A stretch of 64,000 bases of DNA from an uncultured Bacilli bacterium (GTDB lineage Bacteria > Bacillota_I > Bacilli_A > RF39 > UBA660), in NCBI GenBank assembly GCA_944359065.1, contig CALVSP010000001.1, forward strand, positions 4,314 to 68,313, given 5' to 3'. Both the position numbers and the translations under genes were made by a program. Under the pieces are notes generated by a model that searched no databases, was not told the origin of the DNA, and saw only the letters and a program-made list of their open reading frames with translations. Each line of letters begins with the position of its first letter. The first letter of the stretch is position 1. Below, in pieces: positions 15,217 to 37,549 of this stretch.

Positions 15217-16491
15217 CTATTTATTACAATTATTAATGATGTTATAAATATCTTCTTTAAAAAGAATTTTCTTTTCCTTCAACTCATTTGCAAGTACATC
15301 TAGTTTATTTCTATTCTGTAATAATATTTGTTTAACTTCATTGTAATACATATCAAGAATTTTAGTAGCGTTTTTATCTTTATTGTTTTTCACTATATCT
15401 GAACTATCAAAGCTATTTGATATACTATCAAATCCAAAAAAAGTATAATCGCTGACTAATCTTCGTGCTAAAGAATATGCATTATTTGTATCGCGATCAC
15501 TTCCAATATCGCATTTGTTATATACTATTTCTAACGCGGCCTTCCCTGCTAATAATATTTTAATTTTATTCTTTACAACATCAATATCATCAATATAATC
15601 GTTACCATTATATATAGCTAAACCCTTATTATTACCTATTTTAACAACTGAAACTGCTAAAACTGATTGTGGTTGTAATAAGTTTGCTATTAAAGCATGA
15701 GCTGCTTCATGATAAGCAACTCTTTGAGTATATTCGTTTTCTTCATTTAAATCATCAATTATTTCACTATAAGTATGTTCTAAAGATGCTTTAATCAGTT
15801 CTTCCATTCCTATTGATTTTTTATTTTTATATCCTGCATAAATACCTGCTTCATTGCATATATTTTCTAAATCTGCACATGATACTCTTTTTAGAATATA
15901 TGATATGTTTCTTGCATTTACATTCTTATCTATTTGCTTGTTACTTAAATAATGTTTAATTATTTTATAACTATCTTCATCTCTAGGATTTTCAACTTCT
16001 ACAATTATATCGAATCTACCTGATCTTAATAGTGAATCAGGAATATCATATTTCCAATTAGCAGTAGCAATTATAAATATATCGTCATCTTTCACTTCAT
16101 CTATTAATGATTGAACTGTAGCAAATTCCTTACTATTCTTTTTGTCTTGAGCTTCAGAAAATTTATCTAAATCATCTAACAAGATTAAAGATGGTTGAGT
16201 TTCTTTTGCTTGTTTAAAAATATCATTTAAGTGTTCTATAAAATTTTCATCTGCTTTATTTTTCCTTACAATATATGATTTTCTATTAGTGTAATCAATA
16301 AAGTTTTTGGCAATGCAAGTTTTGCCTATACCTGGGGGCCCATATAAAAATAAACCTTTGGGTATGCTTGAACCTAATTTTTTATATTTCTCTGGGTTAT
16401 TTAATACATCAATAGTTCTTTTTAAATGTTGTTTTATATTATCATATCCAATTATATTACTAAATATCTCTTTCTTTTTTTTCTCTTTCAT
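15217..16491 (-). CDS. soluble FtsH-like protein: AAA+ ATPase fused to an M41-type zinc-metalloprotease domain, with no transmembrane or periplasmic N-domain
   Basis: Walker A GPPGIGKT, Walker B ILLDDLD, second region of homology ATANW...RSGRFD, then AYHEAAHAL (HEXXH). Alignable along its length to FtsH from the AAA module onward. Confidence 0.75.
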   Translation of the reverse strand: MKEKKKKEIFSNIIGYDNIKQHLKRTIDVLNNPEKYKKLGSSIPKGLFLYGPPGIGKTCIAKNFIDYTNRKSYIVRKNKADENFIEHLNDIFKQAKETQPSLILLDDLDKFSEAQDKKNSKEFATVQSLIDEVKDDDIFIIATANWKYDIPDSLLRSGRFDIIVEVENPRDEDSYKIIKHYLSNKQIDKNVNARNISYILKRVSCADLENICNEAGIYAGYKNKKSIGMEELIKASLEHTYSEIIDDLNEENEYTQRVAYHEAAHALIANLLQPQSVLAVSVVKIGNNKGLAIYNGNDYIDDIDVVKNKIKILLAGKAALEIVYNKCDIGSDRDTNNAYSLARRLVSDYTFFGFDSISNSFDSSDIVKNNKDKNATKILDMYYNEVKQILLQNRNKLDVLANELKEKKILFKEDIYNIINNCNK

Positions 16492-16840: not shown

Positions 16841-17752
16841 CTATATGGTATCTACGTTCTTAAAGGTAGAACCAGGTTCATATGTCATCCAAATTGGTAA
16901 ATTACGATTGATTATTTCAGATGAATAATCTTGATAATTACTTGGTTCAAATGTAGGTCGAGAAGATATTGCAAGTATCTCACCAGTTTTAGGGTCCATA
17001 ACTATTCCTAATGCTTGATCAGGATTATATTTACTAATAGCATTATCTAATTCACTTTCTAGTGCTACTTGAATATTATAGTCAACAGTTAGATAAACAT
17101 CTATTCCATCTTGTGGTTGTTCATATACTTCTGATAATTTTAATTTGTTTCCTTTAGCATCACTAAAAAATTTAATAGCCCCATAACTTCCTGTTAAATA
17201 ATCATCATACATAAGTTCTAAACCAGATAATCCTTGATTATCGATACCAACAAAACCTAAAGTATGAGCAAGCATACTACCATATGGATAATATCGTTTA
17301 CTTTCTTTTAATAAATATACTCCAGGTAAATCTAAATCATTTATTTTATCTGCTGTTTCATAATCTAATCTTCTACCTTCAGGATGAACTCTTTCAATCG
17401 AAGATTTAACCGAAACATGCTCATACATTTCTTCATAAGTAACACCTAAAATAGGTGCGATTAATTCAGCAGTTTTTTCCTTATCTTCAATTTGATTAGG
17501 GATTAAAACTAAAGATGTCGTTGTTATATTATCAGCTAAAACAACACCATTTCGATCATATATTTTTCCTCTATTTGCTTCTATGGGTAAATTTCTACTC
17601 CATAAACTAGTTGCATAATTATTTAATTTTTCATATTCAAAAACTTGAATATAAAATACTTTACCAATTATCAAAATAAAAAATAAAAATATTATTAACA
17701 TTACTATTTTAATTCTTATATGAATATTTTTAAAAAACATATACTCACCCAC
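16841..17752 (-). pseudogene. truncated penicillin-binding protein (class B PBP N-terminal/dimerisation part) that stops 6 codons after the SXXK active-site motif
   Basis: N-terminal TM, then a PBP dimerisation-domain-like sequence. It ends ...YEPGSTFKNVDTI*. The transpeptidase domain after STFK is missing, and a non-coding stretch of about 350 bp follows before the accessory region. Confidence 0.6.
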
Positions 17753-18366: not shown

Positions 18367-19578
18367 TTAAACTATCAAATTAGATTTAGATACAATTATA
18401 ATAGGCACAATTTTACAACTATCAGTTTTTAAACCTTTATAATATTTTGAATTATTATCGTCAATTTTTTGATATTGAAATGCACCATCATTATATTCAT
18501 TATTAATCCAATAACAACTATTAGAAACTAAATAACTAAAATTAGAATTATTAAATTTATAATATCCATCATTTGTGATTGCATAATTTAATTCATTATT
18601 TAATCTATCTTGATAATTTAAATTTCCAATTATAACATCAGATAAATTATTTCTTACTAAAACAGAATTATTAACATCTTTAGAAATAACTGATAATATA
18701 TCACTCATTTCTAATGGTTTTGACGTAACTTTCCAATTTTTAGTTATTTGATTCATAGTAGTAGTATAATTTTCATATGTACTTACATCAAAGCCACTAT
18801 TTAAATCTGGTAATAACTTAACTGTAGTATCTCCTACTTTATTTCTTGAATCAATTACATAAGTTTTTAAACAAAAAGCACTTACTTGATCACAGACTTT
18901 ATTATTAATAACATCATATAAAACAACATCACCTAAATTGTAATTAGTGTCTGATGTTTCATTAGTAATCATCATTTGTTCCGCTTTTATTTCAATAACC
19001 ACTTCTAAAGATGATCTTATTTCATAATCAGGATTAGATTGTTTTTTTTGTTGTTCTTCCATATAAAATTGATATGCTTTATTTCCCCATTCACTATCCA
19101 ATTCATCATTATTAGAATCAAGTGGCCATGATATAGAAACATTAAACTTACCACTATCACCATGAGATAAAGCATAGTCTTTATCTAAATTCATATTAAT
19201 ATGAAATGGGTAATCATGAGATAATTTATCTATTAATTCCTCATTAGAATTATTATTTAAAACTTCATTTAAAACTCTAACTGACTTAATATTATAACTA
19301 ATTTGGGCATCAGAATCCCCTAAATTAGCTATATCAACATCTTTAAATTCAGTATCCATACCAGGATGAATATCCGATAATGAGATAACAATTTCATTTG
19401 AAACAACTTGTTCACCATTTTTAAATTCAATATTCCAAGCTTTAATATCAACATCAACAGTAGCGCTTGATAAACCACTATAAGCAAACCAAGCTAAAGT
19501 AATAGAAACAAAAGAAATTGCAACAAAAAATAGCGACATCAAATTTAATTTCAAAAATAATTTATGCTTTCTTTCCAC
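18367..19578 (-). CDS. secreted protein with SipW-cognate-type signal peptide (SITLAWFAYSG)
   Basis: 403 aa. N-terminal K-rich region, a hydrophobic helix, then a T-L-A-W-F motif. Immediately downstream of the SipW gene, the same arrangement as sipW-tasA. Confidence 0.55.
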   Translation of the reverse strand: MERKHKLFLKLNLMSLFFVAISFVSITLAWFAYSGLSSATVDVDIKAWNIEFKNGEQVVSNEIVISLSDIHPGMDTEFKDVDIANLGDSDAQISYNIKSVRVLNEVLNNNSNEELIDKLSHDYPFHINMNLDKDYALSHGDSGKFNVSISWPLDSNNDELDSEWGNKAYQFYMEEQQKKQSNPDYEIRSSLEVVIEIKAEQMMITNETSDTNYNLGDVVLYDVINNKVCDQVSAFCLKTYVIDSRNKVGDTTVKLLPDLNSGFDVSTYENYTTTMNQITKNWKVTSKPLEMSDILSVISKDVNNSVLVRNNLSDVIIGNLNYQDRLNNELNYAITNDGYYKFNNSNFSYLVSNSCYWINNEYNDGAFQYQKIDDNNSKYYKGLKTDSCKIVPIIIVSKSNLIV

Positions 19579-19597
19579 TGTTACAACTCCTTTTCTT

Positions 19598-20152
19598 TTA
19601 CGCTTTTTTTCTTCTTTTTTCTTCTTTTTCTAGCATAGTCATAAGTATTTCAGAACCAATAATATATAAAAGTGGTATAAATATTAGGAAAAACATTCCA
19701 AATTTTGTAGCAACTATTTTATATATAAATGATAATATTATACATTTATATATAATTTTGCCATATACTTGACTTTCATAAACTATTGGATCTGGTGCAT
19801 CATTGGCGATACCTTGGGTATGAAAAATATATTTTCCATCTTCATCTTGTTCGATATTAATAACTTCGTGAGTTACAACTTTTCCAGCTAAAGTGCCTTG
19901 CTTACCTAAATAAGAAATAGAATCTCCAATTTCAATTTTAGATGGTTCAATCTCTTTAGCAATTAAAACATCGCCTATTTTATATTTTGGATCCATACTT
20001 CCAGATACAACAGTAAACATTCTAAAACTTAAAAATGATATTTTATTATTACTAAATCTTTGTAAAGCAACTACTAACAAAAATAAAATAATAAATATTG
20101 CAACAAATATATTTAAAATTGTTTTAATTATTTTAAAAGCCTTATTATTCAT
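19598..20152 (-). CDS. sipW: signal peptidase I, SipW/S26B (ER/archaeal) type
   Basis: 184 aa. N-terminal TM, VVSGSMDPKY (Ser nucleophile), VVTHEVI (His), TQGIANDAPD (counterpart of GDNNxxxD), C-terminal TM. Confidence 0.8.
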   Translation of the reverse strand: MNNKAFKIIKTILNIFVAIFIILFLLVVALQRFSNNKISFLSFRMFTVVSGSMDPKYKIGDVLIAKEIEPSKIEIGDSISYLGKQGTLAGKVVTHEVINIEQDEDGKYIFHTQGIANDAPDPIVYESQVYGKIIYKCIILSFIYKIVATKFGMFFLIFIPLLYIIGSEILMTMLEKEEKRRKKA

Positions 20153-20164
20153 ACTAACTAACCA

Positions 20165-21289
20165 CTACAAGTATTCTTGTGCCCTTTCTAAGTATTCTTC
20201 CATTGCATTTTTAAACTTTTTCTTAACATCATCCATACCAACTAATCTTTCACTTTTATCTTTTTTTATTTCTTTAGCTATCATATTTAATAATTCTTCA
20301 TCAGTTATTTCAATACCTGCACTTAATAATAAATCAACTATTCTTCTTATTTCTTCTCTTAACAATAAAACTGCGTTTTTAGCCATTTTTTTCTTTTGTT
20401 CTCTTTTAGAAGGAACTAAAGAATCTAAAACTAAATAATCTATTAAGAATGAGTGATCCAAAAATCCTTTTAATACATCATTTCCATTATCAGTATCATT
20501 TTCTTTTTTATTTTCATCATCCTCAAATTTTAATAAATATTCCCATAGTTTAACAGCAATTCTAAAGTTAGGATTCTTTAAAATGATATTAGTTTTCTTA
20601 ATTGGTGGCTTTATGAATGACACATGTGCTTTATCTAAAGCTTTATACATTTCACTTCTTTGCCAACTAGAAATATATTCTTTAATTCTTTTAATTCTAG
20701 CTTTGATTTTTTTAATTTCATCTTTAATTTTTTTGTCAACCTTTGCAGTTGGTAAAGTTTCTGATGTAACTTTTAATTCAATATCTAATTTTTCAAAATC
20801 AGTTACTGTTTTAGCAGAATACTCTAATACTTTATCATCACTTAATTCAAAATTATTAAGTAATTCCTCTTTTTCTAAAACAAATTTTAATAAAGAATCT
20901 ATTAGAGTATAGAGAAACCTATTTTCATATATATTATAGGTTTCTTCATTTCTAACATCCAATATTTTTTTAGGTTCAACACTTTTAGTTTTCTTATCAA
21001 CTTTATTAATATATTCAGTATGTTTACTCAAATCTTTAATACTTGCTACAGTAATTTTTTTTGATTTTTCAATTTTAACAGTATTTTCTTCTCTAATAAG
21101 TGCGATTTTAGGTTGTCTTACAATAATATCAATATATGGACAAGCATCTTCTATTACATCAATCCAATCAAAAGATACTAAATTACCTTCATAATCAGAT
21201 TTAAAAAACATCTCAGAGCCTAATTTTTTTAAAAATATATCAGTTCTATCTTTTACTTCTTTTTCAACTTCACATTTGAAATTGTCCAT
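20165..21289 (-). CDS. hypothetical cytoplasmic protein, apparently partnered with the McrB-like AAA+ gene (13 bp from the neighbours on each side)
   Basis: 374-aa ORF, K/E-rich, with no confidently recognisable nuclease motif. Confidence 0.4.
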   Translation of the reverse strand: MDNFKCEVEKEVKDRTDIFLKKLGSEMFFKSDYEGNLVSFDWIDVIEDACPYIDIIVRQPKIALIREENTVKIEKSKKITVASIKDLSKHTEYINKVDKKTKSVEPKKILDVRNEETYNIYENRFLYTLIDSLLKFVLEKEELLNNFELSDDKVLEYSAKTVTDFEKLDIELKVTSETLPTAKVDKKIKDEIKKIKARIKRIKEYISSWQRSEMYKALDKAHVSFIKPPIKKTNIILKNPNFRIAVKLWEYLLKFEDDENKKENDTDNGNDVLKGFLDHSFLIDYLVLDSLVPSKREQKKKMAKNAVLLLREEIRRIVDLLLSAGIEITDEELLNMIAKEIKKDKSERLVGMDDVKKKFKNAMEEYLERAQEYL

Positions 21290-21306
21290 ATAATATCAAC
21301 CCCTAA

Positions 21307-22836
21307 CTATATGCTTTTCTTAAGATTTTGTAAATATGCAATACATTCTTTCATTACATCTTTACCAAATTTTTTATTCAAATAAGAAATAAATGGATCA
21401 ATTTCATCTCTAATTAAAGCAACACTTAATTGATCAAATTTTCTTAATATTTTTTTAGCAATAAAGTAATCAATAGCTTCGATTTCTTTACCACCACATG
21501 CTACATAAACAGGAACAAATACACCTAATTGTTTCATAATACGATTACCAAAAGCAATTCTAAAATGTTCAATAACGTAATCATCTATTTCTCCAACATA
21601 ATTTAATCCTTTATCAGATAATGGATATTTTTCAATTGCATCAGCGAATAAACTGTCTAAATAACTTGAATTTATTTTTACTACATCTTGTTCACGACAT
21701 TTAAATGGATCTACTTTTGTATTAATATCAATAGGCATTGCTCTATCATATACTTTATCAGTAACCATAAATGTTGAATCATCATTATTAATAGTACCAA
21801 TATACCAAATATTACCTGGTAATTTAATTTTTCCTTTAATTAATTTTTTAGGATCATCTGGCCAAGCACTAGGAACTAAATCTACTAACCATTCATCACG
21901 ACTAGGCATTTCAAGAATTGATAATAAATCCGCAAAATAATATTCAACACGTGCTAAATTCATTTCATCTAGAATAATTGTATGAACATCATCATCAAAT
22001 GAAGCAGCATATATTTCACCTAAAGCCTTAGTTTCATTAAACTTTTTAGTAAATTCATTGAAATATCCTAAAAAATCTGATTTATCTCTCCAAGATGGTT
22101 CAACAGAAGATACACAAGCATCCATACCCATAAATTTTCCCCAAGCATATGCTAAGGAAGTTTTACCAGTACCAGAGATACCTTGTAAAATAATTAACTT
22201 ACCACAAGCTAAGCCACCAAAGAAAGGCCTTAAAATTGTAAAATCATAATATAAATGTAATTGACTAGCAGCAAAACATCTAAAATCATCAATTAATTGC
22301 GCTAAAGTTGTATCGTTTTCATATTTTTTAATTTTATAACCTTCAAATTGTTCATCAATAGCCACCAATTTAGGAAATCTAATTCCTTTAATAACAGCAT
22401 CTTCTTCTTCCGGTTTTTCTTCTTCTTTATTTTCTTCAGTTTCTTCCTCAGGATTAATTCCTAATTGAGAAACTTTCATAGCCATTAATTCTTCTCTTTC
22501 TTTCATTAACTTTCTAACTTGATCATTTAAATTACCAATTTCAGTTAATAATTCATCTTTACTTAAATTATTATTTAATTTTCTTATAATTTTTTTAACT
22601 AATAAGAATATTAATAATGCTATTAATAAAACAATTATTATTAAACAAACAACACACATAACAACAAATATTTTTTCATTGCCATTAAAATTATCTTTAT
22701 AACTTTCAATTATTTTAGCGTAATCACCAAAACTAAACATCTGTTTAATACCATTAATAAATCCTTTAAAAGCATTAAACAATCCATCAAAAAAGATAGA
22801 TATAAATTCGTAAAAAAATCTCAAAAATGTATTCAT
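21307..22836 (-). CDS. membrane-anchored AAA+ ATPase of the AAA_5 / McrB-like class
   Basis: 509 aa. TM helix (FVVMCVVCLIIIVLLIALLIFLL), coiled coil, acidic linker. Walker A GISGTGKTS. Walker B/sensor HTIILDEMNLARVEYYFADLLSILE (compare McrB hhIDEINRa...fGEl..LLE). Also IGTINNDDSTF...YDRA. Confidence 0.6.
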   Translation of the reverse strand: MNTFLRFFYEFISIFFDGLFNAFKGFINGIKQMFSFGDYAKIIESYKDNFNGNEKIFVVMCVVCLIIIVLLIALLIFLLVKKIIRKLNNNLSKDELLTEIGNLNDQVRKLMKEREELMAMKVSQLGINPEEETEENKEEEKPEEEDAVIKGIRFPKLVAIDEQFEGYKIKKYENDTTLAQLIDDFRCFAASQLHLYYDFTILRPFFGGLACGKLIILQGISGTGKTSLAYAWGKFMGMDACVSSVEPSWRDKSDFLGYFNEFTKKFNETKALGEIYAASFDDDVHTIILDEMNLARVEYYFADLLSILEMPSRDEWLVDLVPSAWPDDPKKLIKGKIKLPGNIWYIGTINNDDSTFMVTDKVYDRAMPIDINTKVDPFKCREQDVVKINSSYLDSLFADAIEKYPLSDKGLNYVGEIDDYVIEHFRIAFGNRIMKQLGVFVPVYVACGGKEIEAIDYFIAKKILRKFDQLSVALIRDEIDPFISYLNKKFGKDVMKECIAYLQNLKKSI

Positions 22837-22839
22837 AAA

Positions 22840-24882
22840 CTACTCTCCCCAATAACTTCCTATTTTACTTGCTATATCATCATAAGCAATTTTATTGTGT
22901 AATTCTTCTTTAATTGATGATAAAACATCAATCGATTCAAACATTTTCCCTTTTACTCTTTTATCGATAAATATGTATTCCATTGCTTCAACAATTCCTT
23001 GATCTTTTGCTTTAACTGCTGAAGTTTGTAAATCAACGGCAAATCTATATCCATCTTTAATTAATGATTTAATAACCTTTTTATTCTTTGACAATTCTTC
23101 ATATTGAGATAAAACAATAATATTATTTTTAGCATATTCATCACCAAATAAATTAAATATTTTATCTAACTTATTAGATTTAGTATATAAACTTTCTGGT
23201 ATATAGAATATATATTTTTTATTAAAATCAGCATTCAACATATCTTTAACAACTTGTACCAATAATAATGTTAATAAAACTTCTATTTTGTCTTCAGCAA
23301 CAATGCCATCATAATATGTTTTATCTACAATATAATCGCTATATACTTTACTAAAATTGATATTATGATTTAGTTCAACTGCGTAAGTATTTTTTATTGA
23401 TAAACTATTATAATTTAATTCAAATAAACTTGTTTCTAATTTTTCAATCGATTCTTTAACAATAGATTTATAAGTTTTTTGAATTTTTAATATACTACTA
23501 ATCATAGTATTCATTGTTTTTGGATCAACTTCAGTTCCAATTAATTTAACCATCTTATTTTTATAAGTTTGTTTTTTTATCTTAGTATCATCAATAACTA
23601 AATATGTGTGTTCTAAATGCATAATTAAAGTAAATATATTAGTGTATTTTTTTACCTTTTCACTATATTTATTATCAGTACCTTTATATACTTTAATCAT
23701 TTTTTCTGCTGCTTCTTTTAATGCATTTTCAATTCTAGTATTCATATTACGGCCATTATATTCAACATTGACATCTCCGCAATAATTATAATATTTACCA
23801 TCAATATAAACACTCATAAAGTTTTCTCTAATCGTTGCTTCATTAGTTTTTAAAGTTTCATCATTATTTAAAACTTCAATAATTTCCTTTAATTCTTCTT
23901 CTTTCATAAACATAGTTTTTTCGATTATATTTTTGAATTTTTTCTTTTTATTTTGTAACATTTCTAATTTTAATTCAACTTCAGCAACTTTAGGTTCTTC
24001 TTCTTTTTCTACAACGACTGGTTGTTCTTCTTCAATTTCAATTTTTTTAGCATAAGCATTTTCGATTTCATCTTTATCAACTTGAATCATTCTAAAATAC
24101 ATAGTTTTATCTAAATCTTCTGCTTCTAAAGGTTTTAAATCAGTAATTGTTTCATCAATTTTTTCATCTTTTACTTCTTCAACCTTAGTAACTTTTACTT
24201 CTTCATCTTCTTCTTTTATATTATTTTGAATTTTTTCTGGTTCTGATTTTTCTTTAATATATTCATCATTAACTATTTTTTTCTTATCCTTTTTAATTAA
24301 TTTAATAATATTTTTTATAAATATTTTTATTTTTTTAACTACATTTGCCATAAATACATCAAATTTCTTCATATCTTTTTCCTTCTTATTCTTCTTAATT
24401 GTTAATGTTACTAAATAAACAGTAATAATAATTGCAACTAAAACATAAGGATTAAATATTGTTTTTTTAAATATACCAAAAGCAGGTAATACTTTAACAA
24501 CTTTTCCAACTATTTGTTCTTGTGTAATTGGATCATCCTTAGCATCATTAGCATCACCTTTAGTTACATAAGTACCTTGGTATGCTTCAATAACTCTATG
24601 AGTTATAAATTCACCATCTTGCTTAAATGTAATAATATCATCTAATTTTATATTTTTAGAATACTTAACAACAATCCAATCACCAGGTTCAACTGCTTCT
24701 CCCATACTTCCTGTCTGCACTTCAAATACAGAGTAACCAAAAAAACTAGAGTAATCATTACCTAATAATTTAACTTGGATATTGTTGTATATAGAAATTA
24801 ATAATACTATTCCAAAAATAAAAATTAATATATTTAAACCAATATTGGCAACTTTTTCTAAAATTTTACCTTTATTTACCAT
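22840..24882 (-). CDS. fusion protein: N-terminal S26B/SipW-type signal peptidase domain plus a long K/E-rich coiled-coil and a C-terminal domain of about 380 aa of unknown function
   Basis: TM helix, QTGSMGEAVEPGDWIVV (Ser), FITHRVIEAY (His), TKGDANDAKDD, then a second TM (YVLVAIIITVYLVTLTI). Cytoplasmic extension of about 500 aa follows. Confidence 0.6.
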   Translation of the reverse strand: MVNKGKILEKVANIGLNILIFIFGIVLLISIYNNIQVKLLGNDYSSFFGYSVFEVQTGSMGEAVEPGDWIVVKYSKNIKLDDIITFKQDGEFITHRVIEAYQGTYVTKGDANDAKDDPITQEQIVGKVVKVLPAFGIFKKTIFNPYVLVAIIITVYLVTLTIKKNKKEKDMKKFDVFMANVVKKIKIFIKNIIKLIKKDKKKIVNDEYIKEKSEPEKIQNNIKEEDEEVKVTKVEEVKDEKIDETITDLKPLEAEDLDKTMYFRMIQVDKDEIENAYAKKIEIEEEQPVVVEKEEEPKVAEVELKLEMLQNKKKKFKNIIEKTMFMKEEELKEIIEVLNNDETLKTNEATIRENFMSVYIDGKYYNYCGDVNVEYNGRNMNTRIENALKEAAEKMIKVYKGTDNKYSEKVKKYTNIFTLIMHLEHTYLVIDDTKIKKQTYKNKMVKLIGTEVDPKTMNTMISSILKIQKTYKSIVKESIEKLETSLFELNYNSLSIKNTYAVELNHNINFSKVYSDYIVDKTYYDGIVAEDKIEVLLTLLLVQVVKDMLNADFNKKYIFYIPESLYTKSNKLDKIFNLFGDEYAKNNIIVLSQYEELSKNKKVIKSLIKDGYRFAVDLQTSAVKAKDQGIVEAMEYIFIDKRVKGKMFESIDVLSSIKEELHNKIAYDDIASKIGSYWGE

Positions 24883-24978
24883 ACTATATCAACCCTATCT
24901 TTGACTCTTTTCTTACTATATATAATTTTACCATATTCGACATTTTTTTACAATACAAAAAATCAAAAAAAAGAATGT

Positions 24979-26589
24979 TTAATCATTCTCTTTAATTTCT
25001 TTAGCAACAATTTTTTCAACTTGCACAATAAACCAAATCTTTTCAATTGTTGTTTCACTTTTTTCTATTTTATTTACTCTTAATATTAATAATATCTTAT
25101 TAAGTAAATTTTTAAGATTATCTTCATTTAAATCATCTTCACTAATATTAATACTATTTAATCGATATTTATTACTAATTGTTTTAGCAATATTATTACT
25201 AGAAAAAATTGGTACTCCAGTAATAATAATATTAGTTGGATTCATTGCAAACAAATCAAAATTATCGCTATATTTAATAATTTCATCATAATCAGTTATA
25301 TTATAAACTTTTTGAATTGTTAATTTTTTAAAATAATCAAAACTATAATATAAATTCAAAACATCAGAAATAGTTAATGTATCATTTAATATCATCATTA
25401 CTTTATCTTTAAAATATTCAATATCATAAGTTTTATATAACTCATATAATTCTTTAGCTTTTAAAACTGATTGTAATTTTAATTGCTTTAAAGCACTATC
25501 AGATCTAAACTCAAATAAACCTGGTTTACCACTAAAGATTTTCTTATTTAATTTTTCTAATTCATTTTCTTTAGTTTCTATTTGATCAATAATAGTTTTT
25601 AAACCTTTATACTCTTTTTTATCAGTAGTCAATAATTTTTCATATTCATCTTTAAAATACTTAAACATTGGATAAAACTCTAAATAATTTTGATATTCTA
25701 AAATATTTAATTTTAATTTTTCTAAAGCAGGCGCTACTTTATCAACATCAGTAACTTCTGGAATTAAAGAATCAAATGCTGTTTTGCGTCCTTTACTATC
25801 ACTTAAATATTGTTCGATATCTAATTCTTTAGTTTTAGCCATAGCTATTATGTCACTAATAGTTTCTTTACTTGCCATATTTAAATCAATATAAGCATCT
25901 TGTAATTTTTCTAAACAATGAGCATAATCTCTAATTTTATTTTTCTCCATTACTTCTTTTTGTAATGTTAAAATATAATTATTAAATTTACGACTATTTT
26001 TCTTAATTAACTTTCTAAAATTTAATTCTATATGTTGAATAAGTTCAGGATTTACCCAATAAATTTGTTCAAATATTTCTGATACTTTATCATAACTACT
26101 TAATCTTCTATTTCTTACTTCTAAAAAAGCAGTCATATATTCATGGACATAACAAGTATAATTAAAATCATCACTTTCTAAATGAATACCTGCTTGTTCA
26201 AACTTATCTAATAAACCATTTATTATTTCATTTAAAGATTTAAAATTAAATGTATCATAATTATTAATTTGATATAGTAAATCATCAAAACACATTTTTT
26301 CGACATAGGTATTAGTTGGATTTAAAAGAAATTTAACATTTTCTAAAGTTTCTAATTTTTCTGTTAATTGATCTAAATCAGTAGATTCTTTAACTTCAAA
26401 ACTTTTAGCCTTAGCAATTAAATAATTTCTAGTGCTAGTTTTATATTCTTCATATCTTTCAATTATATCATCAATTGTTTCATTAAATTTCTTTTTATTT
26501 GTTTTAGTTTTAGTAGGCATAGTGGAAATTAATGTTTTTTTTGCTTCAATATCTTTATTTATAAATTCTAAAAAATTATTCATCTTCAT
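24979..26589 (-). CDS. hypothetical all-alpha cytoplasmic protein
   Basis: 536 aa with no TM. Sits inside the same tightly spaced minus-strand gene string. Confidence 0.4.
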   Translation of the reverse strand: MKMNNFLEFINKDIEAKKTLISTMPTKTKTNKKKFNETIDDIIERYEEYKTSTRNYLIAKAKSFEVKESTDLDQLTEKLETLENVKFLLNPTNTYVEKMCFDDLLYQINNYDTFNFKSLNEIINGLLDKFEQAGIHLESDDFNYTCYVHEYMTAFLEVRNRRLSSYDKVSEIFEQIYWVNPELIQHIELNFRKLIKKNSRKFNNYILTLQKEVMEKNKIRDYAHCLEKLQDAYIDLNMASKETISDIIAMAKTKELDIEQYLSDSKGRKTAFDSLIPEVTDVDKVAPALEKLKLNILEYQNYLEFYPMFKYFKDEYEKLLTTDKKEYKGLKTIIDQIETKENELEKLNKKIFSGKPGLFEFRSDSALKQLKLQSVLKAKELYELYKTYDIEYFKDKVMMILNDTLTISDVLNLYYSFDYFKKLTIQKVYNITDYDEIIKYSDNFDLFAMNPTNIIITGVPIFSSNNIAKTISNKYRLNSINISEDDLNEDNLKNLLNKILLILRVNKIEKSETTIEKIWFIVQVEKIVAKEIKEND

Positions 26590-26736
26590 TTTCCTCTTCT
26601 AACTCTATTTTACTTTCAACTAAAAATTGCGAAAAATCTGTAATATTTTGATAAACTTCAATCAATTCTTTTAAAGTTAGTGTCGATAAATCGAAATCTA
26701 CTTTTTCTTCCCTTTTCATCTTATCACCTTTTTCCC

Positions 26737-27783
26737 CTATTCATATCCTTGTGTATCTTTTAAGAAATTTAATGAAATATATATTTCAGCACCATCAGAA
26801 TCTGTTTCTAGACTATCAATATCTTGTCCTTCAATCCAAACATATACTCTTGTTTTAGTTATACCATCTGGTACAGTAAATAAAGGTTGTTCAAAATCTT
26901 CATCAGTCATAGTTTCTTGTAATTCAAAATAATTTGGATCAAGATTTGGTGAACCAGATACTGTATTTGCTACAAATATAGGACCACCTGCTCTAGTAAA
27001 TGCATATGTTGGAAATTCTTGCCCATCAATTAAATTAACGCCATATTTAGTAGCCCTTTCAATAGAAAGATTTGAATGTGCTTTACTATTTGGCTCAAAA
27101 ATAATAGAATAACAATTATTATTACATTCAATATTTTGAACTTCATTTGCTGGTGCATCTTTAGCAACAGATCCAATTTTAACAATACCAATACGAGCAG
27201 AATTTAATAAACCTATCATTTCTTCTTCTGCATTTTTTTCCATTGTGATTGAAGTACCATATTCAAAATATAAATTATCGCTTACTGGAGAACCAGAATC
27301 ATTTTTGAAAAACAAATCAAATGCTATATAATTATTGTACTCATTTCTGCCACCTTCATGCATTAAATTAGTTCTTATATAACCATTATTTTTATCCTTA
27401 TTTGGATATCTAACCCCACTACTTGAAAACATATTAAATATCGGACTATCATGATTAGTAATTCCATTTGAAGAAATAGGTACTAATCCGCCACCTGCCC
27501 ATTGACTTGTATTATTAGGATAAGTATATCTTAATCCTCTTATAAGTTCATCAGCAGATATAATTAAATCAGTATCAAAATTAATACCATCTAAAGAAAT
27601 AGATAATCCAGTATTCTTTTTAACCGTCATAGTAAATGTTTTTACTCTAACATTTAAATTGGTTGAAAACCATGCATATGTTGAAAAAATAAGCAAAATA
27701 CCTACTAATACCATAATAGTGATAGTAACTTTTTTATTTGTTTTTTCAATAATTCTTTGTCTAAAAGTATTTTGTTTTTTCAT
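26737..27783 (-). CDS. secreted protein, SipW-cognate signal (STYAWFSTNLNV); member of the IWIEGQDID family
   Basis: 348 aa. C-terminal region TKTRVYVWIEGQDIDSLETD shared with paralogues. Confidence 0.55.
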   Translation of the reverse strand: MKKQNTFRQRIIEKTNKKVTITIMVLVGILLIFSTYAWFSTNLNVRVKTFTMTVKKNTGLSISLDGINFDTDLIISADELIRGLRYTYPNNTSQWAGGGLVPISSNGITNHDSPIFNMFSSSGVRYPNKDKNNGYIRTNLMHEGGRNEYNNYIAFDLFFKNDSGSPVSDNLYFEYGTSITMEKNAEEEMIGLLNSARIGIVKIGSVAKDAPANEVQNIECNNNCYSIIFEPNSKAHSNLSIERATKYGVNLIDGQEFPTYAFTRAGGPIFVANTVSGSPNLDPNYFELQETMTDEDFEQPLFTVPDGITKTRVYVWIEGQDIDSLETDSDGAEIYISLNFLKDTQGYE

Positions 27784-27844
27784 TTTTCACCACCTAATTA
27801 ATAAAGGAAGAGTAATTAACCAAATTACTCTTCTTTATTATCAA

Positions 27845-29146
27845 TTATTCACCATTTGTTGGAGTAATATCTGTACTTGGTCCATCGTAACCTGGAATAT
27901 CAGATTCAATATATCTTTCTTTAGTGAATCCAAAATTAACTGTAATTTTCTTTCCTAATGAAGCGAAATCATAATTATCGATATCTTGTCCTTCAATCCA
28001 AATGTAAACTCTAACTTTTGTAATACTATTTGGAGCTAAAGTCATAAACTGTGGACGATCTTTACCAGCAACATTTTTCATTGTATCAGTAAAGTATGGG
28101 AATTCAACTAAGTTATATGTACTTCTATTTCCTGCAATGTAAGTTTCATAATCTACAGTATTTTTTGTATAAGTATTGTAAGCTAATCCATCATAAATAT
28201 TTACATTATCAGCAATTTCAATATCATTACTAATTGCATATGTTGGATAAGCTGTACCATTTTCTACTGCAGTACATTTTGAACCAGCATTATATGAATC
28301 TGGATCATTAACATCGTCACCATCAGTAGAAGCTTTTCTTGTTAAACAAGATTTTTGATACCAATTAATAGCATTTTGTACGTGTTTAGTATCGTTTGGT
28401 TCCCAAATTTGAGCATCTCTACAAATTCCAGTTACTTGAACTTGGCCATCAGCAGCAGGTACATCAGCGCAAGTGATTTTTGTAATATTGTCAACTGATT
28501 CAGTATTAGCTTCAACACGCCCGATTTGCGCGAAAGCAACTCTTACTGAATTTTCAATACCTGCTTTTTTTTCTCCACCATTTGCAGAAACTTTAACTTC
28601 TGAATTAGTAGTTAAATAAATTGCTTCTTCATTTAATGGATTATTATCAGTATAATAAGCATTTCCTGATAAGTTTTTAATGAATAAGTCAAATGCTACA
28701 TATCCATTTTCTTCTTCATATTCAACACCACCAGCATTTAAAGTAGTATGGTTATCAACTTGTTTAGATAATAATCTATAACCACCAGTAACAGCAGTTA
28801 AACTTCCTTTTTCATATAATTTCATTCTTGATGAAGCTTTATGCATATCACCAACAGATGACATTGGAATTAATCCTTCGCCAGGTTGATCTAACCATTG
28901 GTTAGCATTTCCTTCATAAGGATCAGCATTTCTTGCATCTAATGTATATTTCCAGTTTTCTCCATCCATAGATAAGAATAAACCTTCTGTTGTTGCTATG
29001 TTAACACTAAATTCTGCAACATTAACAGTTTTCATACCAATAAACCATGCATAAGTTGAAACTGATAATAAGATTGCACATAAAGAACAAATAGCAACTA
29101 AATCTCTAATTCTTTTACTTTTTTTACTATTATGTTTTTTTGCCAT
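27845..29146 (-). CDS. secreted protein, SipW-cognate signal (STYAWFIGMKTVNV); paralogue of 37550..38866
   Basis: 433 aa. Ends ...RVYIWIEGQDIDNYDFASLGKKITVNFGFTKERY. Confidence 0.55.
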   Translation of the reverse strand: MAKKHNSKKSKRIRDLVAICSLCAILLSVSTYAWFIGMKTVNVAEFSVNIATTEGLFLSMDGENWKYTLDARNADPYEGNANQWLDQPGEGLIPMSSVGDMHKASSRMKLYEKGSLTAVTGGYRLLSKQVDNHTTLNAGGVEYEEENGYVAFDLFIKNLSGNAYYTDNNPLNEEAIYLTTNSEVKVSANGGEKKAGIENSVRVAFAQIGRVEANTESVDNITKITCADVPAADGQVQVTGICRDAQIWEPNDTKHVQNAINWYQKSCLTRKASTDGDDVNDPDSYNAGSKCTAVENGTAYPTYAISNDIEIADNVNIYDGLAYNTYTKNTVDYETYIAGNRSTYNLVEFPYFTDTMKNVAGKDRPQFMTLAPNSITKVRVYIWIEGQDIDNYDFASLGKKITVNFGFTKERYIESDIPGYDGPSTDITPTNGE

Positions 29147-29214
29147 AATTTCCTCCTATATTTAAATTTTAGTAACCTAGAAGATTAATTAAAATCTTCT
29201 AGTTACTTTAATAA

Positions 29215-30459
29215 TTATTCACCTAATGTTGGTCTCTTATCAACATCACTTGGTAATTTAGGATCACCATCATAGTTGATATCTTCACCATATAATTGTT
29301 CTTTAGTAAATCCAAATGAAAGTGAGATTTGTCCTCCTAATGAAGCAAAATCATAGTTATCAACATCTTGTCCTTCAATCCAAATATAAACTCTAATTTT
29401 TGTAATACTATTTGGAGCTAAATAGAATAATTCTGGTCTTTCAGTACCTTTTAAATTTTTCATTGTATCTGTGAAAGTAGATACTTTCATTAATTTGCCT
29501 TTAGTAGCAGTCATAGCAACTGAAGCAGTATAACCATTGTATTCAGTACCATCATATACATCTACTTGATCAGTGTAATTAATTTCACCACTTACTGCAT
29601 ATGTTGGAACAAAAGTACCATCAGTAACAGTACCACATGTACCACTAAATGAACTTGGATTAGTAATATCAGCCGCTTTTCTCTTTAAGCATGATTTTGT
29701 ATACCATTGAATTGCATTATTTACGTGTTTTGTATCATTTGGTTCCCAAATTGTAGCATCTCTATTTGTACAAATACTAGAAACGCCATTACCACCTGTA
29801 CAATCAATTCCTTGAATTTTTGAAGTATTTTCTTCAGTTGCAACTACACGTCCAATTTGTGCGAAAGCAACTCTTACTGAATTTTCAATACCAGCTGTTT
29901 TTTGTCCAGCAGCACCAGTTTTAACAACTGATTGTGGAGTTAAATAAATTCCTTCTTCATTTTTTATATCAACTGTATCATAATAAGCATTTCCTGATAA
30001 GTTTTTAACAAATAAATCAAATGCTACATATCCATCTTGTTCAGTAGTATCATTTTCAACTTGCCTAGCCATTACACGATAACCACCAGGTGAAGCTGTG
30101 AAACTACCTTTTTCATATAAAATTAAGTTAGATGAATCAGTGTCGATTTTTCCAACTGTTGACATTGGAATTAATCCTTTGCCACCCCAACTGTTTGTAT
30201 TAGTCGAATATGTTCCTTTAACACCAGGATCACTATAATTACTTTCGTTAATTGTTACTGTGTCACCAAAATTTTTACCATCTAATGAAAGTGATAAACC
30301 ATCGATTGCAGCAATTTCTACATCGAATGCGGTAACGTTAACAGTTTTCATACCAATAAACCATGCATAGGTTGAAACTGATAAAATAGTAGCACATAAA
30401 CCAGCTCCAACAAGCAATTTTTTGACACGTTTTTCATGTCTTCTATTTCTTTTTTCCAT
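29215..30459 (-). CDS. secreted protein, SipW-cognate signal; paralogue of 38877..40295
   Basis: 414 aa. STYAWFIGMKTVNVTAFDVEIAAIDGLSLSLDG... and RVYIWIEGQDVDNYDFASLGGQISLSFGFTKEQ. Confidence 0.55.
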   Translation of the reverse strand: MEKRNRRHEKRVKKLLVGAGLCATILSVSTYAWFIGMKTVNVTAFDVEIAAIDGLSLSLDGKNFGDTVTINESNYSDPGVKGTYSTNTNSWGGKGLIPMSTVGKIDTDSSNLILYEKGSFTASPGGYRVMARQVENDTTEQDGYVAFDLFVKNLSGNAYYDTVDIKNEEGIYLTPQSVVKTGAAGQKTAGIENSVRVAFAQIGRVVATEENTSKIQGIDCTGGNGVSSICTNRDATIWEPNDTKHVNNAIQWYTKSCLKRKAADITNPSSFSGTCGTVTDGTFVPTYAVSGEINYTDQVDVYDGTEYNGYTASVAMTATKGKLMKVSTFTDTMKNLKGTERPELFYLAPNSITKIRVYIWIEGQDVDNYDFASLGGQISLSFGFTKEQLYGEDINYDGDPKLPSDVDKRPTLGE

Positions 30460-30478
30460 ATGTACCTCTCTCTTTTCA

Positions 30479-31174
30479 TTAATTTTCTACGTACTCTGAA
30501 TTGAAATCCATATAAACAGAGAATTCGCCACCTAAGATATCATCTGTACATTCAGGATCACTACCCTCAACCCAAATGACAATTGTATATTTATCGATAT
30601 CTCCAGGTTTGAAATTATCAACTTTATTACGAGCAACTAATTTTTCTTCTTCAAATGGAATAGTATCTGGCTCATTTCTTCCATTAGAAGCTTTCTTAGC
30701 GTACGTAACAGGTTGTCCATTTCGATAGACTCTAATTCTTACAGCACTGTCGATTTTTTTGATAACATCTGTGATAAAAAGTTCACTCCAATAGCTTGTA
30801 ATTTCATATCCAACATTCTCAACAAAAAATGTATAAGCAAGGTATTCAGAACCATTATGAGAACCACCAGTAGAATCATCTAAATTATCGGGTAACCAAT
30901 TACCAGATATATTAGTGAATGTTTTAGGCGAAGCAACTGATAATTCTGCTTGATACACTTTATAATTAGGATCATCGTAAATGATAATACCTCTACTAAA
31001 GTATAAGTTTTTATCCAGTGTTATACTAAAATTACCACTATTATAAATAATACCTATAACTAAATACAAAAGAATAAATAGGAAAAGAAATATTAATAAA
31101 GCTATTCTAAAGATCTTTTTAAGTTTTTTTTCATTTTTGATTTTCTTTGAACTAAGCTTAATCTTATCTTCCAT
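30479..31174 (-). CDS. membrane-anchored 231-aa paralogue (N-terminal TM, no obvious cleavage motif) sharing the C-terminal W[IV]EG.D motif; first gene of cassette 1
   Basis: KKLKKIFRIALLIFLFLFILLYLVIGIIYNSGNFSITLDKN ... KYTIVIWVEGSDPECTDDILGGEFSVYMDF. About 60% identical to 40285..40977. Confidence 0.55.
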   Translation of the reverse strand: MEDKIKLSSKKIKNEKKLKKIFRIALLIFLFLFILLYLVIGIIYNSGNFSITLDKNLYFSRGIIIYDDPNYKVYQAELSVASPKTFTNISGNWLPDNLDDSTGGSHNGSEYLAYTFFVENVGYEITSYWSELFITDVIKKIDSAVRIRVYRNGQPVTYAKKASNGRNEPDTIPFEEEKLVARNKVDNFKPGDIDKYTIVIWVEGSDPECTDDILGGEFSVYMDFNSEYVEN

Positions 31175-31239
31175 AACTCTACCCCTTCATATTACCCTAT
31201 AAACTAGGGTCACTATGATATTCTTTACAATACAATATA

Positions 31240-31267
31240 ATTATAACATACATATTTTTTTTGTCAA
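31240..31267 (-). promoter_or_regulatory. consensus sigma-A promoter (TTGACA-16-TATAAT on the minus strand) driving cassette 1
   Basis: The minus strand reads ttgaca aaaaaaatatgtatgt tataat. ATTGTCGA direct repeats lie further upstream at 31273..31290. Duplicated at 41031..41058. Confidence 0.6.
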
Positions 31268-31477
31268 TATAATATGTCGATAATTGTCGAATTTAATTTT
31301 ACTTTGTTTTTCTTTATTTTACAATAGTTTTTTGTCAATCATTTACACTATTTCGTTATTTTTGTTAAATATTTTACACATATTGACATATATAAAATCA
31401 CATTTTACACTTTTATGTTGATTTTTTACACATATATATGTATAATAAAGATGTAAAAGAAGAAAGAAGGGTTTTAA

Positions 31478-32089
31478 ATGGCAATGAAATTTAAAATATT
31501 GTTAGTTATTAGTTCTTTGGCATTAACATTAAGTTTGATGAGTAATACTTATTCAAGATATGTTGCTGATGTTGATAGCAATATTGATTTGTTATTCGCT
31601 AAGTGGCAAATTTTAGTTAATGAAAATGATATTACCAATAATACTACAACTTCTATCAATATTACTCCAGTTATGGAAGAAAATGTTAACGTTGCTGAAA
31701 ACACCGTTGCTCCTTCTTCTAAAGGTTATTTTGATATTGACATTGATCCATCTAATGCTGGTGTATCATTTGATTATTCAATCAATTTAAACATTGAAGA
31801 TGAAAATATGCCTGATTTAATGATTAGTAAATATGCAGTTTTAGATAAAGATTATAATGAAGGAGATCAAATAACTACAACCACTATTTTAAATAATACA
31901 ATAGATGGAACTGTTGATTATAACGCTACTACACATGAACCATTTACAGTAAGAGTTTTCTTTGAATGGTATGAAGGTGTTGATGAAAAAATGGATGATG
32001 AAGCTGATACAAATATAGGTTATGAAGCAGCATTAAATAATAAATCATTACTAGTAAACGCATCAATTAGTTTCAATCAAAAAATTTAA
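31478..32089 (+). CDS. TasA/camelysin-sized secreted protein with SipW-cognate signal (MSNTYSRYVADVDSN)
   Basis: 203 aa. It has its own promoter (ttgatt-17-tataat at 31418..31446) and is divergent from cassette 1. Confidence 0.55.
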   Translation: MAMKFKILLVISSLALTLSLMSNTYSRYVADVDSNIDLLFAKWQILVNENDITNNTTTSINITPVMEENVNVAENTVAPSSKGYFDIDIDPSNAGVSFDYSINLNIEDENMPDLMISKYAVLDKDYNEGDQITTTTILNNTIDGTVDYNATTHEPFTVRVFFEWYEGVDEKMDDEADTNIGYEAALNNKSLLVNASISFNQKI

Positions 32090-32155
32090 GAGATTTTTTA
32101 AAATCTCTTTTTTAATATATTTATATATTAAAAAAACACAATTTTTTATTGTGTT

Positions 32156-32689
32156 TTATTCTTCTACATCTACTTCATCACCATATTTAATTTCAACTAT
32201 TAATGCATATAATTCATAAATAAAGATTAAGAAACAAGGTACTAATACGATAAATAAGAAGCCCCATTGTGATTCGATAATTCCTAACACTCCTCCAATA
32301 TCATTATATACTTTAGTAGGTCTACCAATTAAATATTTGATTGAATATGTTTCACCATTTTCTAATGTAAGATAATCATCCATAACTTCTCCAACTTTAC
32401 CAATATTGATATCAGCAGTTTTAGACATCTTATCGACTTTATAAACGAATACTTCTTCACCTTTTTGTAAATTTTCTGGTGCAGCTTCTTCAACTAAAAC
32501 TAAATCACCTTTTTGATATTCTTCATGACTTACCTTATCTTTTAAAATTACTAATGAAGTTTCACCAAATACTGTTACACGATAATCATTGAAATTCAAA
32601 AGTAAAATTGTCATAAATAATGCAAAGGTAAAATAAACAATTCCTAATGTTACTAATAATACTTTCTTAATTTTTTTTAAAACTTTCAT
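32156..32689 (-). CDS. SipW-like topology protein (N- and C-terminal TM helices flanking a beta-rich domain) lacking recognisable catalytic Ser and His; candidate inactive signal-peptidase paralogue
   Basis: 177 aa. TM1 VLLVTLGIVYFTFALFMTILLL. The domain contains KGDLVLV and EVFVYKV. TM2 FLFIVLVPCFLIFIYELYALIV. No GSM or THRV motif. Confidence 0.35.
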   Translation of the reverse strand: MKVLKKIKKVLLVTLGIVYFTFALFMTILLLNFNDYRVTVFGETSLVILKDKVSHEEYQKGDLVLVEEAAPENLQKGEEVFVYKVDKMSKTADINIGKVGEVMDDYLTLENGETYSIKYLIGRPTKVYNDIGGVLGIIESQWGFLFIVLVPCFLIFIYELYALIVEIKYGDEVDVEE

Positions 32690-32698
32690 ACTTCCTCC

Positions 32699-33556: not shown

Positions 33557-34085
33557 CTAACTTCTGCCAACTATTTATTTCCACATCAATGAAATCTGCT
33601 AAATTTGTATATTCTAATGAATTATACTCACTAGGGAAAGTTACTTTTAATTTATAATTATCTAACGTTTCATTTGTATGTTCTAGTGTTTGAATTGAAG
33701 AATTACATACCAATTCATTTTTTTCATTTCTTGAATAAGTCTCATCACATTTCATTATTAATTCTTCCGTTTCCCCTACTTTATATAATTCAATATCTAA
33801 AGGCATAAAATGAAATGTTTTAATAGTAATTTGATATTCAACTGTTACATTACTTAATTCATTATCCTTATTAGCAACTGAAAATAAATACTCTTCATTA
33901 CTACCAGGATTTAAATTACTTAAATTTAACTCTAAATGATCTAATTGTTTACTTTCAAATACAAATTTAGCGATTTTTTGATCTACTTTTATATTACTGT
34001 TAGAATTAAACATTGAATATGTAACACCAGTACCTAAAAATATAGTTATTAAAATAAATAAAATTATCAATACTTTATGTTTCAT
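33549..34085 (-). CDS. TasA/camelysin-sized secreted protein with SipW-cognate signal (GTGVTYSMFNSNSN)
   Basis: 178 aa. Lies 10 bp downstream of the 1109-aa gene. Confidence 0.55.
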   Translation of the reverse strand: MKHKVLIILFILITIFLGTGVTYSMFNSNSNIKVDQKIAKFVFESKQLDHLELNLSNLNPGSNEEYLFSVANKDNELSNVTVEYQITIKTFHFMPLDIELYKVGETEELIMKCDETYSRNEKNELVCNSSIQTLEHTNETLDNYKLKVTFPSEYNSLEYTNLADFIDVEINSWQKLGD

Positions 34086-34094
34086 AACACCCTC

Positions 34095-37424: not shown

Positions 37425-37510
37425 AAATATCTTCCTTTACCACTTATTTATTCTTTAACTTTTCTACCTTATATCAATTATAACATAATTCGACATCTTT
37501 TGCACTACAT

Positions 37511-37545
37511 TTCAAAAAAAATATCACACAAATTGTGTGATATTT
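37511..37545 (-). terminator. rho-independent terminator ending the cassette-2 transcript
   Basis: Perfect inverted repeat atatcacacaa/ttgtgtgatat, followed on the minus strand by an 8-T run. Confidence 0.55.
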
Positions 37546-37549
37546 TAAA

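Follow-up and report, generated by a model that had tools for sequence, protein, structure and literature searches.

What is the role of a McrB-like nucleoside triphosphatase (NTPase) that is encoded among signal peptidases and secreted proteins? The question is raised by a 64,000-nucleotide (nt) stretch of DNA from an uncultured Bacilli bacterium (contig CALVSP010000001.1; hereafter the window), in which a 509-amino-acid (aa) McrB-like protein and a 374-aa partner are encoded next to SipW-type signal peptidases. A first-pass annotation had suggested a mechanical role in fibre export or assembly, with an embedded defence pair as the alternative. An association of McrB-like and McrC-like proteins with signal peptidases has been given the name CoCoPALM in one paragraph of a published survey, where its analysis was deferred (Bell et al., 2024, eLife 13:RP94800, PMC11090510). 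We give a probability of about 60% to the reading that the pair in the window serves as cytoplasmic NTPase module in a cluster for the SipW-dependent biogenesis of a (pilus-like) surface fibre, a CoCoPALM-type exaptation of the McrBC motor. We infer that the role of the pair is mechanical, and favour fibre assembly over an embedded defence pair. Coordinates below are positions in the window, all genes of the core cluster lie on the (-) strand (Table 1), and the G+C content is ~24% over the whole window.

Both open reading frames (ORFs) are present where the annotation placed them, on the (-) strand and with lengths of 509 and 374 aa. The neighbours of the 509-aa gene were also as described, a 680-aa SipW fusion upstream and the 374-aa gene downstream. 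The reported 13-bp gaps on its two sides had to be corrected: the junction between the 680-aa and 509-aa genes measures 3 nt (TAG-ttt-ATG), and spacings of 17 nt and 12 nt separate the 509-aa gene from the 374-aa gene and the latter from the gene for the peptidase SipW184. The genes are nonetheless tightly packed. The McrB-like protein has >8000 full-length homologues and the partner 1444, and by this conservation both ORFs are genuine genes. The best 120 homologues listed for the McrB-like protein are 72-99% identical to it, and its homologues with E<1e-30 form 720 clusters at 50% identity.

To which NTPase family does the 509-aa protein belong? The translation contains every motif quoted in the annotation: GISGTGKTS occupies aa 219-227, IILDEMNLARVEYYFADLLSILE begins at aa 287 and GTINNDDSTF lies at approximately aa 347-356. 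The Walker B segment aligns with IIDEIN of Escherichia coli McrB. In A1, an alignment and profile of 20 diverse sequences of the family, D, E or Q occupies position 353. Comparison of profile A1 with E. coli McrB by hhalign gave 96.7% (E 4.4e-10, 169 columns). When the same profile was searched against the whole Protein Data Bank (PDB), McrB chains were the sole family at E<0.01 (best 3e-5), and RavA, CbbQ and NorQ were not returned; phmmer of the protein itself against PDB sequences matched McrB alone. In the NxD branch of McrB GTPases the signature is described as ‘strictly conserved’ and ‘usually followed by E or a second D’ (Bell et al., 2024). With the hhalign result, McrB as the sole PDB family and an invariant N350-x-D352 followed by D, E or Q, the core belongs, on sequence criteria, to this branch. 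The annotated likeness to McrB, GvpN and CbbQ can therefore be narrowed to McrB and, within it, to the NxD branch. The module had also been called AAA_5; Pfam AAA_5 (PF07728) did not match the 509-aa protein at E≤0.1, and its sole Pfam match at this threshold was PF00004 (E=0.042). The AAA_5 model, which does match a plasmid relative, fails here because the family has diverged too far from it. Among the PADLOC defence models, PDC-M26A matched the core only (2.5e-36, profile positions 314-431 of 724).

The N-terminal part of the protein agrees well with the membrane helix, coiled coil and acidic linker that had been annotated. Hydropathy was scored as the mean Kyte-Doolittle (KD) value over 19 residues, with windows above 1.6 counted as transmembrane (TM)-grade, and a single such segment was found, at aa 56-80. 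Because the basic cluster KKIIRK follows this segment, the positive-inside rule predicts that the NTPase core is cytoplasmic. A TM-grade segment lies within the first 130 aa in 70/70 full-length relatives from the metagenome scan described below. In the AlphaFold2 (AF2) model (predicted local distance difference test score, pLDDT, 70.6) two long helices, 53-88 and 93-124, precede an unstructured stretch of aa 125-154 and then the AAA+ core and lid, of which the P-loop region is modelled at low confidence. The heptad-like segment of aa 85-124 is helical in the model, and the acidic sequence NPEEETEENKEEEKPEEEDA (aa 128-147) is unstructured, in a linker whose length varies between homologues. 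The first 50 residues are modelled as helices 3-24, 26-33 and 36-49, and this pattern is conserved in A1 and in a further alignment, A7. They would lie outside the cell if the protein has one TM segment, or else form a second membrane helix.

Next, we considered the 374-aa partner. Pfam DUF2357 (PF09823) matched it with a score of 44.6 bits (cut-off 23.3; E 1.3e-11), and matched 13 of the 14 partner relatives tested. DUF2357 has been equated with the N-terminal, McrB-activating domain of McrC (Bell et al., 2024). In A2, a diverse alignment of partner homologues, K108, E116, Y121, E122 and N123 are invariant. The AF2 model (pLDDT 73.9) consists of helices and one long hairpin (151-176); residues 186-373 form helices only, and the long helices 186-210, 295-323 and 330-373 appear as helical additions on a McrC homologue. 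The stalk-like extension is poorly conserved except for R198. The tail helices 271-289, 295-323 and 330-373 were modelled at pLDDT ~71-84 and contain no invariant residues: after F242 none is invariant in A2, and only A245, L248, W249, F281 and Y285 are ≥90% conserved. The partner lacks a TM segment (the highest 19-residue mean KD is 1.0), measures 349-394 aa in the genome-scan clade with two exceptions, one of 451 aa and one of 709 aa, and matched no PADLOC model at E≤0.1.

Whether the partner is a nuclease bears on the defence alternative, as the annotation had pointed out. A nuclease fold was not found: AF2 gave helices in the C-terminal half, no conserved D...(D/E)xK-type motif was detected after residue 250 in the family alignment, and no nuclease appeared among the Foldseek matches of the model. 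The best fold matches of the partner were TolC-like long helices at E 0.02, which we regard as meaningless. As a positive control for Pfam nuclease detection we used a plasmid-encoded, defence-type DUF2357 protein, for which likewise no nuclease family was reported. Since this failed control makes a missing Pfam match weak evidence, the absence of a nuclease is argued from AF2 secondary structure and the alignment. We conclude from a medium-confidence model and residue conservation, rather than a solved fold, that the partner is probably a McrC-like protein without a PD-(D/E)xK nuclease.

Conservation of the neighbourhood was examined in two scans. In a scan of one genome per species, at least 585 stretches encoded a relative of the McrB-like protein. 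The best 80 of these were taken as loci, in which the protein is 50-77% identical over 80 species-level genomes, almost all of them metagenome-assembled genomes (MAGs) labelled as uncultured gut Bacilli, Tenericutes, Erysipelotrichaceae or Clostridia; 63 had adequate flanks (≥1.5 kb upstream and ≥4 kb downstream). The McrC-like gene adjoins the McrB-like gene in 63/63, a SipW gene adjoins the pair in 62/63, and domain X, the C-terminal part of the 680-aa SipW fusion, is encoded directly upstream in 60/63. The sole exception without SipW, locus L082, lies beside a gene for a 2768-aa homologue of the adhesin-like protein of the window and a p178 gene. A second scan, seeded with distant relatives, gave 80 metagenome loci; among the 39 with adequate flanks, the partner was present in 39 and adjoined SipW in 37. 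Taken together, the two scans put the partner next to the McrB-like gene in 102/102 loci and a SipW gene next to the pair in 99/102. Pairs routinely found away from SipW, which the annotation had named as one mark of a McrBC-like defence module, were thus not seen.

This linkage is kept in two deep clades, X-McrB-McrC-SipW and SipW-McrB-longMcrC-SipW. The latter, a sister clade to which many of the metagenome loci belong, has a long McrC-like protein of 480-1057 aa. Gene fusions occur in both. SipW is fused to X in 18 of all 80 genome loci and in five metagenome loci, and three sister-clade loci encode McrC-like-SipW fusions with an N-terminal DUF2357 and a C-terminal SipW/Peptidase_S26 domain (L139:9610-12579, L149:1948-5121 and L154:9594-12548). 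As a ‘Rosetta-stone’ fusion, the latter links the partner of the putative motor to the peptidase, and together with SipW-X it ties the module physically to SipW. The gene order upstream is the same in loci L001 and L003 and related in L004-L006, which have two tas genes and no p536 homologue. Among 72,556 plasmids and 50,697 phages no full-length relative of the McrB-like protein was found, only core-only relatives of ≤41% identity. The best plasmid match was an 800-aa AAA_5 protein (26.2 bits) paired with a 705-aa DUF2357 protein in a defence-type arrangement. As a separate observation, the L001 cluster is 90-99% identical to that of the window (McrB-like protein 98%, partner 97%) and is then followed by different genes (BipA, PilC/PilD-like), so that the flank differs between close strains.

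The peptidases and their candidate substrates were examined next. SipW184 matched NCBIfam TIGR02228 with 78.9 bits against a cut-off of 51.85 and has SGS and THEV motifs. In the 680-aa fusion, the peptidase part comprises aa 1-175 (nt 24358..24882) and X comprises aa 317-680 (nt 22843..23934); the former matched Peptidase_S24 at 9.4e-6, retains the catalytic motifs GSM and THRV and has TM segments centred near aa 16-31 and 146-156. The second TM segment is followed by KKNKKEKDMKK, the linker and X, and X is accordingly predicted to be cytoplasmic. Domain X is conserved, spans ~320-360 aa, is free-standing in one clade and SipW-fused in another that includes the window, and had no match in Pfam or the PDB. 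It is probably the third core component of the module. A by-eye likeness of its C-terminal half to EAL (cyclic di-GMP) domains was rejected, as hhalign against E. coli PdeH gave 0.06%.

A common signal motif runs through the secreted proteins of the cluster: a hydrophobic h-region followed by [ST]x[AS]↓[WFYMKR][FYV], where the arrow marks the predicted cleavage position (for example STYA↓WF). Within the window, 10 of the 64 ORFs of ≥100 aa carry it, and all ten lie at 18.4-40.3 kb (18367..40295): p403, five ‘tas’ paralogues, p203, p285, p178 and a 1109-aa adhesin-like protein. The motif was designed after inspection of these proteins, and its restriction to the cluster is therefore supportive rather than independent evidence. 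In 76/86 loci a tblastn match to p403 comes after SipW; p403 itself is distantly related to the tas proteins and counts as a member of their family. The upstream proteins tas414, tas433 and tas348 are secreted; p536 is cytoplasmic and showed no similarity to X or PDB entries. Weak matches to Pfam Peptidase_M73 (PF12389, camelysin/TasA; best E 3.7e-4) were obtained for 4 of the 17 p178-family proteins, and the p178 profile had no match in the PDB. One promoter-like site upstream of p231 and a single hairpin just 3′ of tas433, the sole terminator-like site on the (-) strand between that promoter-like site and p403, are consistent with one gene string from p231 to p403.

How does the locus compare with known systems? 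It matches the CoCoPALM type, a kind that is named and uncharacterised: like those described, it combines, by sequence, an NxD-branch McrB GTPase bearing an N-terminal TM segment and coiled coil with a McrC homologue that has helical or coiled-coil additions and with a signal-peptidase family (Bell et al., 2024). No difference from the published description was seen among the features tested, except that the reported homology of the CoCoPALM N-terminal domain to FtsB (Bell et al., 2024) was not reproduced with our weaker tools. We found no later literature on CoCoPALMs, and the text supplements of that paper give no details of them; relative to its text, domain X, both kinds of fusion, the shared signal motif and the concentration in uncultured gut Bacilli may be new. 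With E. coli McrBC (PDB 6HZ4, 6UT6) the pair shares the AAA+ GTPase core, Walker A and B, the N..D signature, a partner gene immediately downstream and, in this partner, the domain that Bell et al. equate with the McrC N-terminus; the analogy would predict a hexameric ring that the partner activates. In contrast to E. coli McrBC, a TM segment and coiled coil replace the DNA-binding N-terminal domain, the signature is NxD rather than NxxD, the partner has neither a PD-(D/E)xK nuclease nor detectable similarity to E. coli McrC, and the context is one of secretion genes, not restriction-modification. CoCoNuTs and PADLOC PDC-M26 systems likewise have NxD-branch GTPases fused to coiled coils, and McrC homologues often without an active nuclease. 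However, CoCoNuTs are described as soluble and always accompanied by a nuclease such as HEPN (PMC11090510), whereas the window protein is anchored by a TM segment and an accompanying nuclease was not detected, and in the case of PDC-M26 only the NTPase core aligns. The tapA-sipW-tasA operon of Bacillus subtilis and the sipW-bsaA operon of Clostridium perfringens resemble the cluster in encoding a dedicated SipW-type peptidase with its secreted substrates; the N-terminal motif here resembles a SipW-cognate signal peptide, and p178 is weakly camelysin/TasA-like. These matrix-fibre operons differ in having no NTPase. In C. perfringens, efficient secretion of the operon protein BsaC is reported to require type IV pilus proteins, among them the assembly ATPase PilB2; these proteins may also carry BsaA oligomers beyond the peptidoglycan layer, which offers an analogy only (PMC11580942).

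For the fibre-assembly reading, we envisage the following mechanism. By analogy with E. coli McrBC, the McrB-like protein would form a ring under the membrane, held by its TM helix and coiled-coil stalk through the flexible acidic linker, and the DUF2357 domain of the McrC-like protein would plug this ring and stimulate GTP hydrolysis, as Bell et al. describe for McrBC. In the McrC-like protein a helical tail appears to take the place of the nuclease; the gene fusions and strict synteny suggest that the ring is linked through this tail and X to SipW, whose active site would face outward. GTP hydrolysis could then gate or drive the processing and hand-over of the approximately ten cluster proteins with one type of signal peptide, and the processed proteins might polymerise or be pushed out as a fibre. 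The fuller proposal is that a membrane-tethered McrB-type ring, plugged by a nuclease-less McrC and coupled through X to SipW, provides cytoplasmic energy for the processing and extrusion of TasA-like or adhesin fibres; many uncultured gut Bacilli would then share an NTP-driven pathway independent of sortase and type IV pili. It is tentative, and we give it slightly less than even odds. If the module does energise or gate SipW-dependent fibre assembly, no earlier NTPase would be known to work with a system of the SipW/TasA type, the recruitment of a defence motor (McrBC) to cell-surface biogenesis would be clearly exemplified, and abundant uncultured gut lineages (MAG labels Bacilli, Tenericutes, Erysipelotrichaceae) would have in it a defining surface structure. 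The SipW-X and McrC-SipW fusions provide concrete interaction hypotheses that make the CoCoPALM idea directly testable.

Several results weigh against fibre assembly. The SipW/TasA system of B. subtilis is not known to need an NTPase. The large tas proteins (350-470 aa), which are at most putative fibre proteins, had no match in Pfam or the PDB and no detectable similarity to TasA. Foldseek of the McrB-like model against the PDB gave nothing at E≤0.001; MCM, BrxL, RavA and McrB all scored E 0.006-0.07, and fold matches this equal among many AAA+ families do not discriminate. For the partner model, too, the same search returned nothing at E≤0.001 and no nuclease among the matches. The hhalign comparison of the partner profile with E. 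coli McrC, which falls in Pfam PF10117 and not in DUF2357, returned nothing, leaving the Pfam DUF2357 match as the link to McrC. Similarly, homology of the McrB-like N-terminus to FtsB/DivIC was not detected with Pfam DivIC or with hhalign against E. coli FtsB (0.65%).

These points bear on how fibre assembly compares with its rivals. The synteny and fusions apply equally to a regulatory switch, in which the GTPase/McrC-like pair and X would act as a nucleotide-dependent checkpoint on SipW cleavage or fibre initiation and do no mechanical work; X, a conserved cytoplasmic domain fused to SipW, might for example sense a cytoplasmic signal and turn cleavage or initiation on or off. The shortened NxD signature may modulate the hydrolysis rate (Bell et al., 2024), which counts for a switch. 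Donor-strand assembly of the TasA type, moreover, is not known to draw on energy outside the cell. However, strict conservation of Walker A, Walker B and the sensor-like N350 is what an active hydrolase would show, a coiled-coil stalk with a ring-plugging partner is a motor-like architecture, and X has no similarity to known sensor domains, the EAL idea having failed. On balance we hold a pure switch to be unlikely.

The defence alternative, either a CoCoNuT-like McrBC derivative that shares the operon or a set of secreted or membrane effectors for abortive infection, draws on the PDC-M26A match of the core, on nearest plasmid relatives that are defence-type AAA_5 and DUF2357 pairs, and on the otherwise restriction-like company of the NxD branch (Bell et al., 2024). 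Nevertheless, no nuclease was found in the partner or among the cluster proteins scanned, and the partner had no PADLOC match; the gene order is strict and identity high over hundreds of species, unlike patchy defence islands; the TM anchor is universal, and no full-length copy was present on the plasmids and phages examined. Because of the missing nuclease, universal anchor, strict synteny and conservation over species, we regard defence as highly improbable. A scaffold linked to positioning or division fares no better. It would have an ‘FtsB-like’ N-terminus place SipW and its machinery at the septum or the poles, with the NTPase ring mainly as an oligomerisation hub; the TM and coiled-coil architecture is present and the FtsB homology has been reported (Bell et al., 2024). 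Against it, this homology was not reproduced here, and no division genes were linked in the loci examined. The basic residues after the TM segment put the coiled coil of the McrB-like protein in the cytoplasm, opposite to the orientation of FtsB, whose coiled coil is periplasmic. A scaffold role therefore has a very small probability in our estimate, and fibre assembly remains the reading that we favour.

Table 1. Features of the McrB-like/SipW cluster, by position in the 64,000-nt window
Feature	Position	Strand	Evidence or remark
McrB-like (NxD-branch) putative GTPase, membrane-tethered, 509 aa	21307..22836	(-)	Profile comparison with McrB
Conserved aromatic amphipathic N-terminal helices, aa 1-50	22687..22836	(-)	Hydrophobic moment 1.5-2.0, mean KD ~1
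Predicted transmembrane helix aa 56-80, then KKIIRK	22597..22671	(-)	Sole window with mean KD >1.6
Predicted coiled-coil stalk aa 85-124, heptad-like	22465..22584	(-)	AF2 helix 93-124; heptad-like sequence conserved in A1
Acidic disordered linker aa 125-152	22381..22464	(-)	pLDDT 27-36, without secondary structure
Walker A GISGTGKTS, aa 219-227	22156..22182	(-)	G219, G222, G224, K225, T226 invariant in A1
Walker B IILDEMN, aa 287-293	21958..21978	(-)	D290 invariant, E291 ≥90% conserved
McrB signature, shortened NxD form N350-N-D352-D353	21778..21789	(-)	N350 and D352 invariant in A1
McrC-like partner without detected nuclease, 374 aa, predicted cytoplasmic	20165..21289	(-)	Pfam DUF2357
DUF2357 match aa 53-148, includes invariant YEN motif	20846..21133	(-)	Pfam profile positions 96-191 of 251
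Inserted long beta-hairpin 151-176 and long helix, aa 149-215, stalk-like extension	20645..20845	(-)	AF2
Second conserved block aa 229-249, PIKKTNIILKNPNFRIAVKLW	20543..20605	(-)	P229, T233, N234, N239, F242 invariant in A2
Variable all-helical tail aa 270-374, at McrC nuclease position	20168..20482	(-)	AF2 helices
SipW-X fusion, 680 aa: SipW-type peptidase, K/E-rich linker, predicted cytoplasmic domain X	22840..24882	(-)	
SipW184, SipW-type (archaeal/ER-type) signal peptidase I, 184 aa	19598..20152	(-)	TIGR02228
p403, secreted, 403 aa, signal motif ITLA↓WF	18367..19578	(-)	Last gene of conserved core block
Upstream genes p231, tas414, tas433, tas348, p536	24979..31174	(-)	Same gene string
Second cluster half: SipW177, p285, p178, p1109 (adhesin-like), tas438, tas472, p230	32156..40977	(-)	ORFs, motif scan
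Promoter-like site TTGACA-16-TATAAT with TG extension	31240..31267	(-)	Upstream of p231; 12/12 match, consensus only
Terminator-like hairpin	27807..27833	(-)	Just 3′ of tas433

The remaining observations concern the rest of the cluster and its surroundings. A promoter-like site before p231 and a hairpin after tas433 form a layout that is typically seen where a major subunit is strongly expressed and transcription then reads through into genes for assembly. The gene set appears duplicated, p230/tas472/tas438 (37550..40977, -) paralleling p231/tas414/tas433 (27845..31174, -), with tas paralogues that share 54-67% identity with tas414. Unlike the other two SipW copies, the 177-aa SipW177 (32156..32689, -) has lost the GSM and TH(R/E)V motifs and is probably a pseudo-peptidase.

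Beside the cluster and 18 kb from the pair, an ORF on the opposite strand (41065..41721, +) encodes what by eye resembles a staphylococcal-nuclease-type protein with a C-terminal TM segment, and a homologue lies 3 kb from the pair in L082. It was considered as a ‘missing nuclease’ and rejected, a homologue being found in the flank of 1/160 related loci (L082). On the other side of the cluster, a 424-aa protein (15217..16491, -) shows no obvious N-terminal membrane segment by eye, unlike canonical FtsH; an apparent Walker A motif (GPPGIGKT) and a HEAAH zinc-protease motif, likewise noted by eye, suggest that it is FtsH-like. An ORF for a penicillin-binding protein (16841..17752, -) ends just past the start of the transpeptidase domain and may be a pseudogene or mark an assembly break.

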